Part shown: positions 1-23,646 of the stretch, piece by piece
Layout: each line of letters opens with the position of its first letter
How positions within the stretch are numbered: position 1 is the stretch's first letter
Virus record (IMG/VR): IMGVR_UViG_2651869696_000004
Source of the DNA: a virus
Lineage: Duplodnaviria > Heunggongvirae > Uroviricota > Caudoviricetes
Length of the DNA stretch: 23,729 nt
Direction: 5' to 3' (one strand)
Made by a program: the position numbers and the translations under genes
Notes under the pieces: model-generated
What the model was told of the DNA's origin: nothing
The model's input: the letters and a program-made list of their open reading frames with translations, nothing else
The model's database searches: none

Positions 1-102
1 TGCCCGTTGACGGACTTCGGGGGAAAAACGAGTATTTTTAGTCATCCTGTTTACCTCTTTCTCAGGAAGTTTAGTCTCCAGGATTCCCGGGGCGGTTCAT
101 AA
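1..102 (+). CDS. 3' end of an ORF entering from the left edge (frame 1, stop TAA 100-102); possible upstream partner of the DUF1524 gene
   Basis: Open frame from window edge to TAA at 100-102, 4 nt before the TTG at 107; no recognisable motif in the 33 visible codons. Confidence 0.3.
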   Translation, partial: CPLTDFGGKTSIFSHPVYLFLRKFSLQDSRGGS

Positions 103-106
103 AGAA

Positions 107-946
107 TTGGTTGATGGTTTTGGCACAACCCCCATCTCACACTTTGGATATCGCATCGCAGACTATGATGTGACGACACTTTATCCGCTTGCTTTGTTCA
201 TTTCGATAGCTAACATCGCTGATGATGAGAAAGCAGCCATGTATAATGATCTTGTCTCCTACGTAGTACGAAGAGCCGTATGTGGCCTGACGCCAAAGAA
301 TTACAACAATGTATTTATGAATGTATTGCGGCACTTGGCTAAAACGGAAATTTCCAGTGTTGAGTTACGTAATATCCTCAATAACTTAAATGGCGAAGCC
401 TCACGTTGGCCTGGTGACTCAGAATTTCTCAACGCTTGCATCAATGCTCCACTTTATCCTGGCAGGCTCGACGCACCGAAAATGCGCTCAATGTTAACGG
501 AACTTGAAAGAGAACTTTGTCGCCAAGTGAAGACCGAAAAGCCTGATGTTCCAAATCTTTCTAATCTCGATATCGATCATCTTATGCCCCAAAGTTGGTA
601 TTCCTGTTGGCCTCTCGAAAATGGTCGTATGGTGACAAATTCAGATGCTACGGTATTGAACCAAATTGTTCTGTCTGGAACCGATCTTACCCCTGAACAG
701 CTACTGGTAAGGAAACGGCAACAAGCGATAGCTACTTTGGGAAATCTAACTTTGCTTAACCTTAGCGTAAACCGTTCTGTTCAGAATGCTGTATTTCTGA
801 AAAAACGTGATGCTCTCATCGTCCACACCAATCTACGACTGAACATTCCACTTATAGTTAAGGATAAATGGGATGAGGATGAAATCCTGGAGCGGGGTAA
901 AAATTTGGGGGAAATTGCATTGAAAGTATGGCCAAAACACGATTAA
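107..946 (+). CDS. DUF1524/GmrD-like His-Me finger (HNH-type) nuclease domain protein; start codon uncertain (TTG at 107 or ATG at 239)
   Basis: Motifs DIDHLMPQS and GNLTLLNLSVNRSVQNAVFLKKRD match the DUF1524 signature found at the C-terminus of GmrSD-type enzymes; in-frame stop at 8-10 excludes a longer N-terminus in this frame; appears lower in GC than the phage genes by eye. Confidence 0.7.
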   Translation: MVDGFGTTPISHFGYRIADYDVTTLYPLALFISIANIADDEKAAMYNDLVSYVVRRAVCGLTPKNYNNVFMNVLRHLAKTEISSVELRNILNNLNGEASRWPGDSEFLNACINAPLYPGRLDAPKMRSMLTELERELCRQVKTEKPDVPNLSNLDIDHLMPQSWYSCWPLENGRMVTNSDATVLNQIVLSGTDLTPEQLLVRKRQQAIATLGNLTLLNLSVNRSVQNAVFLKKRDALIVHTNLRLNIPLIVKDKWDEDEILERGKNLGEIALKVWPKHD

Positions 947-967
947 TGCAATTAATAAAATGATTAT

Positions 968-993
968 AGCGGCCTTACCTTAGTAAGGCCGCT
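968..993 (+). terminator. Stem-loop (10-bp stem agcggcctta / taaggccgct, 6-nt loop) 22 nt after the DUF1524 gene stop; possible bidirectional terminator
   Basis: Perfect inverted repeat read directly; flanked by A/T-rich sequence on both sides but no clean U-tract on the plus strand. Confidence 0.45.
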
Positions 994-1041
994 ACTCACT
1001 ATTAAATACTTTAATTTGCATCAAGAACAGCAATGTCAGCC

Positions 1042-1170
1042 CTAGGTCTCGGACTTTGTACCGCTTATCTTGTTTTCAAAAATCAGCTCGCATCCTGCAC
1101 AGTTCAGCGCATTACGTTGTAGATCTGTGTTCTGGTCATTTGTTGATACGCGTACATAGCCAATAAGCAT
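1042..1170 (-). pseudogene. Serine DNA invertase (Gin/Pin/Hin/Cin family) N-terminal remnant, 43 codons then TAG
   Basis: Minus-strand translation from ATG at 1170 gives MLIGYVRVSTNDQNTDLQRNALNCAGCELIFENKISGTKSET*, which matches the conserved invertase N-terminus including the catalytic Ser in YVRVST; similarity ends about codon 40 and no downstream invertase sequence is present. Confidence 0.85.
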
Positions 1171-1224
1171 GGTAGATCCCCCTGACAAAAGCAGGAATGA
1201 TGCCATTTGCTCGTTATTTCTGCA

Positions 1225-1250
1225 TTTTCATAAACGTTGGTTTGGGAGAA
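1225..1250. repeat. Left crossover site of invertible segment (TTTTCATAAACG-TT-GGTTTGGGAGAA)
   Basis: 26-bp site with two 12-bp half-sites around a 2-bp core; inverted relative to 3145-3170 with a 14-bp perfect match; resembles gix/hix/pix architecture. Confidence 0.7.
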
Positions 1251-1747
1251 GGCTCTGCATTACCTGCGGTGTGCCTGTTCCGTGGCCTTCCGCCACTCCG
1301 CCGACAGGCTGGCTGAAATGCAATGGTGCGGCTTTTTCTGCTGAAGAATACCCGGAACTGGCAAAGGCTTACCCGACAAATAAATTGCCTGATTTACGCG
1401 GTGAATTTATTCGTGGCTGGGATGATGGGCGTAGTGCGGATGCGGGGAGAACAATATTATCCGCTCAGGGCGATGCCATACGTAATATCTATGGTGAGTT
1501 CAAGACTGTAAACACCGAAAATTATTCAATATGGGAATCAGTAGGCTCGTTTAAGGGGGCAGTGGTGCCTTTGAACCCCTCAACGAACAATAGTTATTTC
1601 TCCTTAGTCAGAAGTATGGTGACAGAAAGGTCCGAGGGCGGTGTTTACCCAAAAGTGATTGGCCTTGATGCTTCAAGAATTGTTCCAACTGCAAACGAAA
1701 ATCGACCCCGTAACATTGCCTTTAATTATATCGTGAGGGCTGCCTGA
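1251..1747 (+). CDS. Alternative tail-fibre C-terminal cassette (Sv'-like) with tail-collar domain; no start codon of its own; out of frame with the crossover site as it stands
   Basis: PVPWPSATPPTGWLKCNGAAFSAEEYPELAKAY...LPDLRGEFIRGWDDGR is a phage tail-collar-type motif; the track ORF 1169-1747 reads through the invertase start and the crossover site, so its first 27 codons are not genuine. Confidence 0.7.
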
Positions 1748-2349
1748 TGGATAAAGCTATATTAAATAAGGAACTCATCGCCACAAAGGCGGGAGATATT
1801 ACCGTTTATAATTATGATGGTGAAACACGAGAATATATTTCCACATCAACCGAATATCTTGCTGTGGGTGTCGGTATCCCGGCATGTTCCTGTTTAGATG
1901 CTCCTGGCTCATATAAAGCTGGTTATGCAATTTGCCGTTCTGCAGATTTTAACTCATGGGAATATGTGCCAGACCATCGCGGTGAAATCGTCTATAGCAC
2001 CGAAACAGGAGAATCAAAAGAAATCACAGCTCCGGGTGATTACCCTGAAAAGACAACCACTATCGCCCCGTTAACGCCATACGATAAATGGGATGGTGAG
2101 AAATGGGTGACGGATACCGAGGCACAGCATAGAGCAGCAGTAGACATGGCAGAAACACAGCGGCAGTCGCTGATTGATGCTGCAATGGTTTCCATTAGTC
2201 TGATTCAACTGAAATTGCAGGCCGGGAGGAAGCTGACGCAGGCAGAAAACACCCGACTTAACGCCGTGCTGGATTACACTGACGCGGTGACGGCAACAGA
2301 TACCAGCACCGCGCCGGATGTCATCTGGCCTGAACTGCCGGAGGCGTAG
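1747..2349 (+). CDS. Tail fibre assembly protein (Tfa), partner of the alternative fibre cassette
   Basis: 200 aa; start overlaps the cassette stop (TGATG); C-terminus DYTDAVTATDTSTAPDVIWPELPEA is similar to the C-terminus of the convergent Tfa. Confidence 0.8.
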   Translation: MDKAILNKELIATKAGDITVYNYDGETREYISTSTEYLAVGVGIPACSCLDAPGSYKAGYAICRSADFNSWEYVPDHRGEIVYSTETGESKEITAPGDYPEKTTTIAPLTPYDKWDGEKWVTDTEAQHRAAVDMAETQRQSLIDAAMVSISLIQLKLQAGRKLTQAENTRLNAVLDYTDAVTATDTSTAPDVIWPELPEA

Positions 2350-2773
2350 GCCATTCAATATCTGGAGCACTGGAGGTATCAACCAGCTCCAGTGCGTCCA
2401 GATAATCCAGCCACAAATTATATTGCGCCAGTTCGTCACCTTTCAGACGACCAATAGCGGCTTTACCAGGCCATTGTTTACTGTTCATATAATCGTTGGC
2501 CTGATTAATTAGTAGCTGTCTTTCTGATTCAGTAATTTCAGTAAGTTCTTCATGCGTAGGGGCAGGAATATCCGCCCACGCGGGCAGCCCATCACCTCCG
2601 GCAATACGGATTTTTCCTTGTGGCGGTTCAGCCATAAATTCACTGATAATATTTTGACTCACCTCCTTAGCATCTGATAAATCCCATCCCTCTGATTTAT
2701 ATTTATCAATCATATCCACAGGGAAAAAAGCATTATGCCTTGCGCTATAAACATATTCGTTCATATAAATCAT
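2321..2773 (-). CDS. Tail fibre assembly protein (Tfa) for the currently expressed fibre
   Basis: 150 aa immediately downstream of the fibre gene; conserved Tfa C-terminal region LWLDYLDALELVDTSSAPDIEWP; 3' ends of the two tfa genes overlap convergently at 2321-2349. Confidence 0.8.
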   Translation of the reverse strand: MIYMNEYVYSARHNAFFPVDMIDKYKSEGWDLSDAKEVSQNIISEFMAEPPQGKIRIAGGDGLPAWADIPAPTHEELTEITESERQLLINQANDYMNSKQWPGKAAIGRLKGDELAQYNLWLDYLDALELVDTSSAPDIEWPTPPAVQAR

Positions 2774-2784
2774 CCTGAATAAAA

Positions 2785-3447
2785 TTATTCACCAACAGCC
2801 CACCAACTGTAAGTCATTGACACCTTGTCGCTGGTTGATGCAGTTCTGTAAGCAGAATTAAAGCCGGTTAATGTTGGGCCTTCTACGGACATAACGAATC
2901 CACGCCCTGCACCAAAAGGCGCACCGCCATCGCCAGAATGGGTAAGAATGGCGATATCCGCTTTTTTAGGGAAAGGGATAGGAAATGTAATCCTCATTGT
3001 TTGCGTCGATAATTTCGGCATAGCCTCACCTCGACCATATTGCAGGATTTTCCCGTTGGGTAATTTCATCCATCCATCACCACTGGCAAAAGAGGTCATG
3101 TCCGGTATCTGATTTTCCCCTGTCCCCACCCCTCGTTTTGCTGCTTCTCCCAAACCAAGGTTTTCGAGAGCCGTTTTCACCGTGCCATCCGATTTGATAT
3201 CACCAAACGGATTCTTGCGGCTTAACAGCAGAGCACGAAGCGCGGTAAGCAACTGGTCGTTTCGCCCCTTCTCCAGGCTGGCACCGGATGCCTCCACCAC
3301 GCTGCAAAGCTCCTCCTGCAACATATCAAAGTAGTCATCATCCAGATCGGTGGCAGGTGTGCCGGTCTGGGGGTTACCACGGGTAAAACCGTTCTTACCC
3401 GCGCCGAACTTATCCTTCTGCGCGGTTTTCGTGTCTATACGATGCAT
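2785..3447 (-). CDS. Tail fibre protein (StfP-like); constant N-terminal part outside and variable C-terminal part inside the invertible segment
   Basis: 220 aa directly downstream of the gp48-like gene; crossover site 3145-3170 falls at codons 93-101 ([12 protein letters not shown]). Confidence 0.8.
3145..3170. repeat. Right crossover site of invertible segment (TTCTCCCAAACC-AA-GGTTTTCGAGAG)
   Basis: Inverted copy of the 1225-1250 site; core dinucleotides are identical when the sites are aligned in the same orientation. Confidence 0.7.
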
Positions 3448-3450
3448 GGA

Positions 3451-4035
3451 TTACTCCGGATATTTAAAAATTACGTAGGTATGCGACGGGCAGAGTTTGT
3501 TAAGCACACACTCGACAACGGTGTCGCCCCAGATACGCAGCGCGGAATCACAGGGATCGCCACATGTCATCCAGGTGGTGTTGGTGGCAGCTGGCATGTT
3601 GACCTGCCAGTAATACCGCCATTCCGGCGCATTCACCGCGTCAGTACAGGCCAATGAGCAGGTGAAGGTGCTTTTGTCGTATCGCGTGATGGTGGCAGCT
3701 GGTCTGCCCAGGGCAGCAAGCTGGGCAAGATAAAAATCCTCGTTGATGCCGCCCGCCAGGTTAACCTTCGCATCCAGCCGTTGCTGACGCTGGCGAAGGG
3801 TCTGTGTCCCTGTAGGAATACATTCATCCGGCAGGCCGCACAGACGCTCCCAGCGATTTATCAGTTCGGTGGTGGTGCGCGGATCCAGCTCCCGCATCAG
3901 GGCATCCGCACGCTGATGAACGCGGGTTAATGACGGTGCCGCACCGGCAATCGCCGGATCGCTGGCTGACCACGCCGGACCGGGCGGCAACAGTGCTGAC
4001 AACAGACGGATGTAATCATCGTTTGTCACGTCCAT
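3451..4035 (-). CDS. Mu gp48-like tail protein (DUF2313/YmfQ-like)
   Basis: 194 aa; position between baseplate J-like gene and tail fibre; N-terminus [16 protein letters not shown] typical of this family. Confidence 0.75.
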
Positions 4036-5084
4036 GAAATCGCCCCCAGAACCGCCAGCTCATTTTTCGCAATGGTGATATTGTCCGCCGGTGCAAGCAA
4101 CTGATGGCTGTATTCCCCGTTCGCACCGGAAATCGCTTCACTGATACGTGACACCTTCAGTTCTCCCTGCGGATAACCATCACGCAGCAGGAACGAACGC
4201 AACTCCGCGGTGATGGCAGCCCGTATTTCCGGTGTGTCCGGCGTCACACGGATATGAAAATCCACCGTATGTGCCACCGGCCTGAACACATACAAATCAG
4301 AGCCTGCCACCGGGGCCAGTGGCCCGATATGTTGTCTTGCCGCCGTTTCCGTTGATTCTTCCGGAATGGGATTAATCAGGTCACTGCTGGCAATCATCAC
4401 ACCGACAGTCCCCGTTCCCATCCAGTGTCGGTATGTCCATGCGCGGGTAATGCCAGGCACTTCTTTAGCCCAGACGACATAGTCCCCGTCAGCCCCGCCC
4501 TGCGGCGTCCAGTAATACCGCTCAATGACGCGGGCGCGCCACGTTTCCAGCTCTTCAGTATCAAATCCGCCTGTCAGGGTGTCAGCCACACCGGAAGACG
4601 GCAGACCATTCACCGGCGTGACCAGGATTAATGCCGTACCGTCGTCAGCGTTACCGACCGCACCTGCACTTGAGCAGGCGATCGGCACGCGCAGGACACC
4701 ACCGGAGCTGATTGCATCGTCAGTTGTCGTGTACTGCACCAGGTCATCGCGCTGAATAACACTCCCGGCAGTCACCTTCAGGCCATCGCTGACACCTTCC
4801 CAGCGCATATACCCGCTGGCAACCGTGGCACCCTTGCGCGGACACCGTTTCATCGCAGCATGTCGCGCCAGCCAGGACTCATCGCACAGGTCAGGCAGCA
4901 TATTCATTGCCAGATAATCGATGTAACCGTAGACCGTATGCAGCGCCGCCGCATACACCTTTGCCCGCACGTCTTCATCCATGCGCCGGAGCGTGTCGCT
5001 GACGTCCAGCCTGGCGAATAAATCGTTACGGAGCATACTGATATTTTCTGCCAGCGTCGGGCGCTGAAATTCACTGTCCGCCAT
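4026..5084 (-). CDS. Baseplate J-like protein (Mu gp47-like)
   Basis: 352 aa; conserved position and length in Mu-like baseplate module. Confidence 0.8.
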
Positions 5085-22887: not shown

Positions 22888-23646
22888 TTATTTCCCCACC
22901 AGTTCACTTACCTCTTTCACTGTCTGGTTAAACCGATCTGACTCAAGCTCAACACCTAACGCCCGACGCCCCAGCTCCATTGCTGCTTTTATTGTGGAAC
23001 CAGATCCCATAAAAAAATCAGCAACCAGATCACCTGGTCGACTACTGGCATTGATTATTTGCCGGAGCATATCCGCCGGTTTCTCACACGGATGTTTACC
23101 CGGGTAGAACTGAACGGGTTTATGCGTCCAGACATCGGTATAAGGCACGGAGACTGATACGGAGAAATAGCGCCGGAGAGATTTAAACTCATCCAGCAAT
23201 TCAGAATATTTGCGATTCAGTGAATCATAAGATGCCACCAGCTGGTGGTGTGTCTGTTCCAGTTGTTGTTCCTGAAACTTCTCTGCCGCTATACGGGAAA
23301 ACAGTGCCTGCAACTTCCGGTAGTCAGCCTCATTCGGCAACTGCCACTGACTGGCACCAAACCAGTGGGAAACCATGTTTTTCTTACCAGTGGCTTCGGC
23401 AATCTGTTTTGCCGTTATACCCAGTTCGGCACGTGCATCCCTGAAATACGATATCAGCGGTGCCATTATGTGCTGTTTGAGTTCCCTTTCTTTTTCCGCA
23501 TAGCCGTCACTTTTGCCGCGATATGGCCCCTGGTAATGTTCAGCAAACAGAACGCGCTCTGTAGCGGGGAAATATGCCCGCAGGCTTTCTTTATTACACC
23601 CGTTCCATCGTCCGGACGGCTTCGCCCAGATGGGTAATGACTCCAA
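22888..23646 (-). CDS. DNA methyltransferase (N6-adenine/N4-cytosine, beta-class-like) lacking the N-terminal DPPY-type motif in this frame
   Basis: C-terminus HPCEKPADMLRQIINASSRPGDLVADFFMGSGST matches the HPTQKP...DPFAGSGTT AdoMet-binding region of YhdJ-type methylases; no DPPY-like motif upstream; TTG start. Confidence 0.7.
   Translation of the reverse strand: MESLPIWAKPSGRWNGCNKESLRAYFPATERVLFAEHYQGPYRGKSDGYAEKERELKQHIMAPLISYFRDARAELGITAKQIAEATGKKNMVSHWFGASQWQLPNEADYRKLQALFSRIAAEKFQEQQLEQTHHQLVASYDSLNRKYSELLDEFKSLRRYFSVSVSVPYTDVWTHKPVQFYPGKHPCEKPADMLRQIINASSRPGDLVADFFMGSGSTIKAAMELGRRALGVELESDRFNQTVKEVSELVGK

Follow-up and report, generated by a model that had tools for sequence, protein, structure and literature searches.

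The tail-fibre locus in this stretch of prophage DNA raises the question of whether it is a classical host-range switch of the G-segment/P-region kind, as the original prediction held, and, if so, whether the prophage can still operate it. The window, i.e. the whole stretch of 23,729 nucleotides that was analysed, contains two candidate crossover sites that delimit the locus.

1225-1250: left crossover site, pix-type, TTTTCATAAACGTTGGTTTGGGAGAA, with core TT at 1237-1238
3145-3170: right crossover site, pix-type, TTCTCCCAAACCAAGGTTTTCGAGAG, with core AA at 3157-3158, lying within codons 93-101 of the fibre gene

The sequences and coordinates of both sites had been predicted exactly, as had their relationship as inverted copies with an identical core dinucleotide (TT and AA being one core in inverted orientation) and the position of the right site inside the expressed fibre gene, where codons 93-101 of the open reading frame at 2785-3447 (- strand) read ...ALENLGLGE.... 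A perfect arm is also present, but the inverted run extends over 15 nt (1237-1251 versus 3144-3158) rather than the predicted 14 bp. The reverse complement of the left site agrees with the right site at 21 of 26 positions, an inverted-repeat search returned 20-nt arms of 95% identity at the sites, and the half-sites, TTTTCATAAACG and TTCTCCCAAACC on the left and TTCTCCCAAACC and CTCTCGAAAACC on the right, are all 12 bp long and imperfect around the 2-bp core. The two sites were the only matches to a Gin-type degenerate 26-bp pattern in the 23.7-kb window, which, given that the pattern was built from the window sites together with the Mu gix sites, demonstrates uniqueness and is not an independent test; 100 shuffles gave no match (0 expected by chance).

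Comparison with known sites reveals that both are base-for-base identical to those of the e14 P segment of Escherichia coli K-12 (26/26 bases each), and the published 16-bp e14 repeat, TTGGTTTGGGAGAAGG (PMC12529663), occurs at 1237-1252. The Mu sites, with half-sites TTATCCAAAACC and TTCCTGTAAACC, have 17-18 of 26 bases in common with those of the window, the core being GA/TC in Mu and AA/TT in the window. A chance inverted repeat was considered and rejected, both on the absence of pattern matches in the shuffles and on the identity with the K-12 sites. At the level of sequence, the locus is identified as a Pin-type (e14 P-region) invertible fibre segment. It measures 1,920 bp from site centre to site centre, and its contents, with the flanking start of one possible reading frame, are as follows.

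1197-1238, + strand: mini-leader MMPFARYFCIFINV, 14 codons, outside the segment; its frame continues into the GLGE codons of the left site
1251-1747, + strand: silent alternative fibre C terminus, StfE-type (Pfam Collar, phage tail Collar domain, 1e-15)
1747-2349, + strand: tail fibre assembly gene of the silent cassette, TfaE-type, 200 aa (Pfam Caudo_TAP, 7e-31)
2321-2773, - strand: tail fibre assembly gene of the expressed cassette (Pfam Caudo_TAP, 4e-30)
2785-3447, - strand: expressed tail fibre gene, 220 aa (Pfam Gp53-like_C, 8e-12)

Residues 1-101 of the expressed fibre form the constant part and are encoded outside the segment, and the variable C terminus corresponds to the Gp53-like_C domain; by Pfam, each of the two opposed C-terminal cassettes inside the segment has its own assembly gene. 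The 3' ends of the two opposed tfa genes overlap by 29 nt. In relatives the assembly gene of the silent cassette is annotated tfaE, and that of the expressed cassette starts at 2764 and encodes 147 aa. The exact 220-aa fibre protein is present on 21 contigs. The gene content is as had been predicted, with an alternative C terminus and its assembly gene facing the expressed pair, and the alternative C terminus is not simply a fragment without a reading frame, the leader being conserved and in frame in K-12 and at 12 of 12 related loci examined. There it opens a reading frame that runs into the cassette adjoining pin, whichever of the two that is, and that is annotated 'tail fiber protein' or stfE, and StfE/StfE2 chimeras have been described in K-12 e14 (PMC12529663). 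The description of the alternative cassette as promoterless rests on anatomy, the promoter scan being uninformative in this respect (4 matches versus 4.6 expected); upstream of the leader on the + strand the scan found no promoter.

The neighbouring genes outside the right site indicate the context in which the fibre is made.

3451-4035, - strand: Mu gp48/YmfQ-like gene (Pfam Phage_Mu_Gp48, 9e-27)
4026-5084, - strand: baseplate J gene (Pfam Baseplate_J, 4e-52)

These and the other late-operon genes upstream place the fibre gene last in a complete tail module of the myovirus type, and the remaining structural module in the window comprises sheath, tape measure, capsid, portal and terminase. In relatives the prophage adjoins ssrA.

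Within the silent cassette, a single nucleotide has been deleted between 1266 and 1267 (CCTG-CGGTG in the window versus CCTGTCGGTG in the related assemblies L006-L008), and this deletion shifts the alternative C terminus out of the frame of the constant part of the fibre. The deletion is the sole difference between the window and L006 across 8,903 bp. Sequencing error was ruled out as its cause, the independent assembly L005 having the same deletion. With the silent cassette frameshifted, inversion would give not an alternative fibre but a stub, the predicted product being a truncated fibre of 122 aa in place of that of 220 aa, and a predicted by-product is a 137-aa open reading frame joining the leader to the Gp53-like cassette. 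For annotation, it should be noted that the 192-aa 'tail fibre' open reading frame at 1169-1747 is an artefact of the frameshift. The original prediction had overlooked this defect, as well as a truncation of the pin gene on the other side of the left site.

The region outside the left site, in which that truncation lies, is organised as follows.

1-98, - strand: end of an IS629 (IS3-family) element, with the orfA start MTKNTRFSPEVRQRA, reading from 45 to 1
107-946, + strand: 3' fragment of a GmrSD/DUF262 type IV restriction gene (Pfam GmrSD_C, 8e-21)
966-995: perfect 12/13-bp GC-rich hairpin, terminator-like, between the GmrSD stop and the pin stump
1042-1170, - strand: pin invertase stump, MLIGYVRVSTNDQNTDLQRNALNCAGCELIFENKISGTKSE, followed by T and a stop (Pfam Resolvase N-terminal, positions 2-47 of 145)
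1086-1148: putative Fis-dependent recombinational enhancer inside the stump (two Fis-like 15-mers, from a motif scan and homology)

An intact serine invertase has about 185-195 aa, with a catalytic domain and a C-terminal helix-turn-helix. In the window, pin homology covers codons 1-41 and the reading frame ends after 42 codons, so that the greater part of the catalytic domain is missing from the stump, as are the oligomerisation helix and the DNA-binding domain. Over its first 122 nt the window pin is 98% identical to K-12 pinE, and the DNA alignment with pinE ends at 1049. When PinE and Gin were used as tblastn queries, residues 1-44 were matched at the stump (77% identical to Gin residues 1-44), with no other significant match in the window, and no intact serine invertase gene adjoins either site. 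A GmrSD/DUF262 cargo block stands in place of the 3' part of pin. In relatives the GmrSD gene is annotated DUF262 and encodes a full-length protein of 629 aa with GmrSD_N and GmrSD_C; in the window it is broken by IS629, whose insertion coincides with the contig end. The IS629 assignment follows from 99-100% matches to sequences that thousands of E. coli records annotate as IS629 family transposase, and homology with those relatives in which GmrSD is intact begins at 99. The inverted repeat of the hairpin is 100% complementary, the terminator-like match comprising 13 pairs. A search of 5,426 complete E. coli genomes gave the DUF262-stump-site junction of the window in 288. The sequence argues that the element's own invertase has been destroyed and the segment orphaned.

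The remaining part of pin is the counterpart of the region that holds the Fis-dependent enhancer in the Hin and Gin systems. Kahmann et al. are said to have located the Gin enhancer within gin in 1985. The two Fis-like 15-mers of the window, TATCAACAAATGACC at 1134-1148 and GTGCAGGATGCGAGC at 1086-1100, one of which agrees with a loose Fis consensus at 6 of 7 positions, are centred at 1141 and 1093, i.e. 48 positions apart, with 96.5 bp separating the proximal motif from the left-site centre; a motif scan gave the same spacing and the same distance to the site in Mu gin. The sequence across the motifs is identical to that of K-12 pinE. This arrangement resembles that of the Hin enhancer, the two Fis sites of which have centres 47 bp apart and lie about 100 bp from hixL (PMC3798978). 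The stump probably retains the 5' coding stretch of pin that matches the Fis-bound enhancer, its position in pin being assigned by homology and its function predicted.

Related genomes carry the segment in both orientations, with the breakpoints at the sites, rather than in one orientation only, which would have told against the original prediction. LH13-b, which has the stump, and D1, which has an intact pinE, carry the segment flipped relative to the window, and their alignments to it break at 1232-1251 and 3144. A contiguous flipped junction occurs in 514 genomes, compared with 72 for the window-type junction. The Collar cassette adjoins the stump in 67 genomes and the Gp53-like allele of the window does so in 6, most of the 288 stump carriers having other cassette alleles, such that these counts do not give a clean orientation ratio. 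The phage collection held no record covering at least 80% of the region. The most informative comparison is between near-identical E. coli prophages, those of ES7 on the one hand and ES8 and SFE8 on the other, which have the pin stump in common and the segment in opposite orientations. Their flanks, including the stump, are 100% identical over 6,452 bp and 99.98-100% identical over 4,182 bp, a segment of 1,858 bp is exactly inverted between the sites, and across 12.4 kb, the site overlaps excluded, no more than one substitution separates them. Opposite orientations on identical stumps and flanks imply that stump carriers still undergo inversion in the absence of a neighbouring invertase. The most likely agent is a Pin-family enzyme with its gene at another location in the genome. 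The near-identity of these prophages implies that such inversion is recent, and frequent relative to point mutation.

We consider it likely, with a probability of about 0.7, that the locus is an orphaned e14-type P segment with its sites and enhancer stretch intact, which can be flipped only in trans and for which a flip acts as an on/off switch. The P segment would close the tail operon of a prophage with a Mu-like tail. There, a Gin/Hin/Cin/Pin-group serine invertase would cleave the two 26-bp sites at their central AA/TT dinucleotide and turn the ends through 180 degrees, so that codons 1-101 of the fibre, which are constant, become linked to either of the C-terminal cassettes, each with its assembly gene behind it. 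The GmrSD/DUF262 block would have taken over everything beyond codon 41 of pin, with the loss of the prophage's own invertase, leaving as an apparently intact DNA substrate both sites and the 5' stretch of pin that corresponds to the Fis-bound enhancer. With its own invertase destroyed, any flipping of the segment should depend on a Pin-family invertase from another source in the cell. Given the 1-nt deletion in the Collar-type cassette, a flip in the window would leave host range as it is. It would exchange the fibre for the stub and would also put the Gp53-like cassette behind the leader, beside the stump. The identity of the sites, the truncation, the frameshift and the occurrence of both orientations in near-identical relatives with the same stump are established by the sequences; enhancer function, the identity of the flipping enzyme and any flipping by this isolate are inferred. 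Experimentally, the e14 sites have been inverted both by PinE and by PinQ from a different prophage (PMC12529663; PMC4272514). In a K-12 pinE deletion mutant the segment is locked (PMC12529663), which fits with loss of the enhancer, though it could also mean that inversion in trans is weak without induction.

Another reading is that inversion ceased when pin was lost, the present orientation being permanent and the sites being kept merely as coding sequence. The lack of an invertase in cis, the decay of the silent cassette and the gain of an IS1 within the baseplate J gene of the sister L005 prophage are all consistent with such an arrest, as is the single orientation of 7 of 7 loci encoding the exact fibre protein, although this is a consequence of the look-up method. 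The opposite orientations in ES7 and ES8/SFE8 on identical stumps and flanks are difficult to reconcile with it. A perfect repeat of 15 nt is too short for efficient homologous recombination, which likewise argues against arrest, and we regard this reading as quite unlikely.

It may also be that the segment has been domesticated by the host as a phase-variable defence switch, in which an invertase of the host or of another prophage produces a free receptor-binding domain, similar to StfE2, that blocks phage adsorption. The conservation in frame of the MMPFARYFCIFINV-GLGE leader at all loci, the 137-aa open reading frame of leader and Gp53-like cassette that inversion of the window would create, the preservation in the stump of exactly the enhancer-bearing part of pin and the proximity of defence cargo, GmrSD in the window and AbiTii in relatives, can all be read in this way, and in K-12 StfE2, a protein with a gp53-like domain, prevents T2 from adsorbing, with PinQ driving the inversion in trans (PMC12529663). 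However, the scan gave no promoter upstream of the leader on the + strand, the Gp53-like cassette of the window differs from the StfP cassette of K-12, and the K-12 result is based on overproduction and docking models (PMC12529663); on balance the proposal is improbable. A related suggestion, which is tentative and which we consider unlikely, is that the 41-codon stump is the shortest enhancer-bearing piece, perhaps retained for flipping by the invertases of other prophages, making the locus a trans-controlled, host-level phase-variable one that possibly serves phage exclusion, via a leader-fused free receptor-binding domain, rather than host range. Finally, despite the canonical architecture and sites and a structural module that looks complete, a self-contained working host-range switch, with the prophage flipping its own segment to alternate two functional fibres, is highly improbable, since it would require that both the invertase gene ending after 42 codons, with no other in the window, and the frameshift in the alternative cassette are assembly errors, whereas the deletion recurs in the independent assembly L005 and the junction in 288 complete genomes. 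Of the original prediction, the classical architecture stands, but a working switch in the window genome does not.

Knowledge of the e14 P segment dates back to the 1980s. As an orphaned segment of this type, the window locus has the e14 gene order (ymfQ - stf - tfa - tfa' - stf' - pin) and a silent cassette of the StfE/TfaE type in common with K-12, and the constant N terminus of its fibre differs from that of StfP at 2 of 101 residues. The differences lie in the expressed fibre, which has 220 aa and a different Gp53-like allele compared with the 209 aa of StfP, in the frameshift of the StfE-type cassette, which e14 does not have, and beyond pin, where e14 has mcrA, whereas in the window pin breaks off after codon 41 and GmrSD/DUF262 comes next. 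Moreover, e14 is a remnant in icd, whereas the window prophage has a full structural module and in relatives lies next to ssrA. The Mu G segment and Gin follow the same plan, with a constant fibre N terminus, two opposed cassettes of C terminus and assembly gene, 26-bp inverted sites and an invertase gene (a stump in the window) directly outside one site; the segment is, however, 3 kb in Mu and 1.9 kb in the window, the fibre of which is much shorter than that of Mu, and the window is without a functional invertase. Fin of Fels-2 reportedly acts in trans on Salmonella hix sites (work attributed to Kutsukake et al., 2006). The action of PinQ on e14 (PMC12529663) is likewise inversion by an invertase encoded elsewhere, as the comparison of ES7 with ES8 implies for the stump carriers. 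In both of these cases the resident invertase is still present, whereas the window segment would depend wholly on a foreign enzyme.

The overall comparison suggests that a known e14-type system is present here in a degenerate, orphaned state, as an ordinary, partly decayed example. As a switch it offers nothing new, its sites being the same as those of the long-known e14 P segment. What it adds is a widespread E. coli prophage lineage in which the invertase appears to have been lost to a defence-gene insertion, the sites and the stump with its putative enhancer have been kept, and orientation varies between near-identical strains. Such differences in orientation among stump carriers may be taken as natural evidence that the invertases of other elements keep such segments in play, and they bear on recent claims that inversions in cryptic prophages serve as anti-phage devices of the host.

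The two 26-bp sequences that the original prediction took to be crossover sites bounding an invertible fibre segment are present at 1225-1250 and 3145-3170. They are inverted copies, as proposed, with 21 of 26 positions agreeing between the right site and the reverse complement of the left, although the perfect run is 15 nt rather than 14; a repeat search gives 20-nt arms at 95% identity. The core dinucleotide is common to both, reading TT at the left and AA at the right, i.e. one core in inverted orientation, and the right site lies inside the fibre gene at codons 93-101, again as proposed. A degenerate site pattern gave two matches in 23.7 kb, both at these sites, and none in 100 shuffles; since the pattern was built from these two sites and the Mu gix sites, this establishes uniqueness in the window and is no independent test. 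Comparison with gix-type sites, suggested as a check, gave 17-18 of 26 bases common with Mu gixL/gixR, whereas both sites are identical (26/26 bases each) to those flanking the P segment of the K-12 cryptic prophage e14, on comparison with the e14 region. In e14, inversion of the 1,797-bp P segment by PinE or PinQ takes place at the repeat TTGGTTTGGGAGAAGG (PMC12529663), which we found at 1237-1252, and phase variation of the K-12 locus has been seen by sequencing and PCR (PMC4272514).

The window corresponds to contig JHSV01000071.1 of GCA_001266155.1 in its entirety and consists mostly of the minus-strand late region of a myovirus-type prophage, as revealed by domain annotation.

Features of the contig, from the late region towards position 1
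Late region, minus strand, domain annotation: terminase, portal, protease, capsid, sheath, tape measure, DNA-circularisation protein
Late region continued, minus strand, domain annotation: baseplate proteins, baseplate J, Mu gp48/YmfQ-like; the YmfQ-like gene is first in the e14-type order
2785-3447, minus strand: tail-fibre gene, 220 aa, last in the late operon; constant N-terminus with 2 of 101 residues unlike K-12 StfP
Minus strand: assembly gene, Caudo_TAP
Plus strand: convergent assembly gene, Caudo_TAP, TfaE-type
Plus strand: Collar-domain fibre C-terminus, StfE-type
1042-1170, minus strand: pin, last in the e14-type order, here a stump
966-995: strong hairpin downstream of the pin stump
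107-946: 3' part of a GmrSD/DUF262 gene, downstream of the hairpin and cut by the IS629 end
1-98, minus strand: IS629 end with the start of orfA, inserted in the GmrSD/DUF262 gene

At the far end, past the terminase and lysis-side genes, an ORF at 22888-23646 (minus strand) carries an N6_N4 DNA methylase domain. The gene order and domains, from annotation and domain search, agree with those of e14, as do the sites, which upholds the predicted invertible-fibre-segment architecture. By its sites, gene order and sequence, the element can be assigned to the e14 P-region family. It lacks the resident invertase, one of the features that define invertase switches, and is for this reason better regarded as a substrate of that wider family that has been orphaned.

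The resolvase-type ORF by the left site has a Pfam match to model positions 2-47 of 145 only. At the DNA level, homology with K-12 pinE extends from the left site across codons 1-41 and ends at 1049, codon 41 being followed by a T and then a stop, and tblastn with PinE and Gin detected no second invertase in the window. As the IS629 end falls at the very edge of the contig, this repeat is probably where the assembly broke. In relatives GmrSD is full-length (629 aa) with an AbiTii gene farther along, outside the coverage of the window, and in ES7 and its relatives a DinI-like pseudogene lies between the two. The slot beyond pin (window 107-1049; also the related loci L002, L003, L013 and L014) carries defence cargo that varies among e14-like prophages: mcrA (K-12, XH988), GIY-YIG (strain D1) or GmrSD/DUF262, with AbiTii in relatives. 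Of these versions only that with GmrSD has the 3' part of pin removed; the mcrA and GIY-YIG slots adjoin full-length pinE, intact in K-12 and D1, whereas the L002 copy has a frameshift. The DUF262-stump-site junction of the window is shared by 288 of 5,426 E. coli genomes, and the truncation is therefore a single old, widespread event.

Both orientations of the segment, rather than only one, occur in related genomes, and the proposed refutation by a single orientation thus does not apply. Among complete E. coli genomes, 514 carry the flipped junction (a synthetic query in which the constant part is followed by the Collar cassette) as a contiguous match, and 72 carry the window-type junction in this way. 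Near-identical stump-bearing prophages were observed in the orientation of the window (ES7, WP2-S18-ESBL-07, MIN6) and in the opposite one (ES8, SFE8, c1-17). ES7 and ES8, both from one frog-farm sediment, have left flanks (6,452 bp, including the stump) that are 100% identical and right flanks (4,182 bp) with one substitution, while the 1,858 bp between the sites are exactly inverted with the sequences of both sites retained. In ES7, ES8 and SFE8 (L014-L016, 1900-6150) the prophage end adjoins ssrA (tmRNA) and smpB, whereas K-12 e14 sits in icd. Since such near-identical stump-bearing prophages have opposite orientations, inversion has occurred after loss of the invertase, and at a high rate compared with point mutation. 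Ordinary homologous recombination needs a longer match than a 15-nt perfect repeat. The most economical candidate for the agent would be a Pin-family invertase encoded elsewhere, for which inversion of e14 by PinQ of prophage Qin in K-12 is a direct precedent in trans (PMC12529663).

The silent cassette is frameshifted in this isolate. Relatives read GGT TTG GGA GAA GGC TCT GCA TTA CCT GTC GGT GTG CCT GTT CCG TGG (GLGEGSALPVGVPVPW), and the window is without a T between 1266 and 1267. A sequencing slip is ruled out as the source, the same deletion being present in L005 (GCA_040813075.1), an independent assembly that is close to complete and, this common deletion apart, 100% identical to the window. 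In that sister genome the baseplate J position is interrupted by IS1 (L005 3684-4381), which fits further decay and agrees with a prophage lineage in decay. Because the deletion is the sole difference from L006 (GCA_946415125.1) across 8,903 bp, it is, on this comparison, a very recent mutation. The fibre predicted after inversion has 122 aa, ending ...GLGEGSALPAVCLFRGLPPLRRQAG. The gene call reports 1169-1747 (plus strand) as a 192-aa Collar protein; this ORF is an artefact. Its unrelated upstream ATG lies within the pin stump, which is encoded on the other strand, and only the deletion puts that ATG and the Collar domain into one reading frame.

A short conserved leader, MMPFARYFCIFINV (1197-1238), lies outside the segment in frame with the left-site GLGE codons, as it does in K-12 and in 12 of 12 related loci examined, and therefore any cassette in the 'silent' position forms an ORF. 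In the window this ORF is predicted, a promoter scan being uninformative, and the 1-nt deletion ends it after 39 codons; in K-12 e14 the leader-fused ORFs are the StfE and StfE2 of PMC12529663, where StfE2, a protein with a gp53-like domain, is reported to block T2 adsorption when overproduced.

The stump carries two Fis-like 15-mers centred at 1141 and 1093, 48 positions apart, with the proximal one 96.5 bp from the left-site centre. The same two motifs occur at the same distances in Mu gin, and the stretch is identical to K-12 pinE. In the Gin and Hin systems the enhancer lies within the 5' portion of the invertase coding sequence. The stump retains the part of pin corresponding to these enhancers, from which we infer a candidate enhancer function; the Hin enhancer has two Fis sites 47 bp apart, centre to centre, ~100 bp from hixL (PMC3798978).

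In this isolate, the Gp53-like-tipped fibre and its assembly protein occupy the expressed position. Most probably, the segment would flip if Fis and an invertase from another element came together on both sites and the putative stump enhancer. After such a flip the fibre product would be truncated, and beside the stump there would be a 137-aa ORF in which the leader is joined to the Gp53-like tip. With the invertase a stump and the silent cassette frameshifted, the predicted host-range switch does not hold here, the element being an on/off switch at best. It seems rather unlikely that selection has kept the enhancer-bearing stump because it belongs to a phase-variable locus under host control, perhaps with a role in defence. 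The mechanism offers nothing new, the switch being already known; mild novelty lies solely in how common the combination of stump and sites is, and in its apparently continued flipping in trans.
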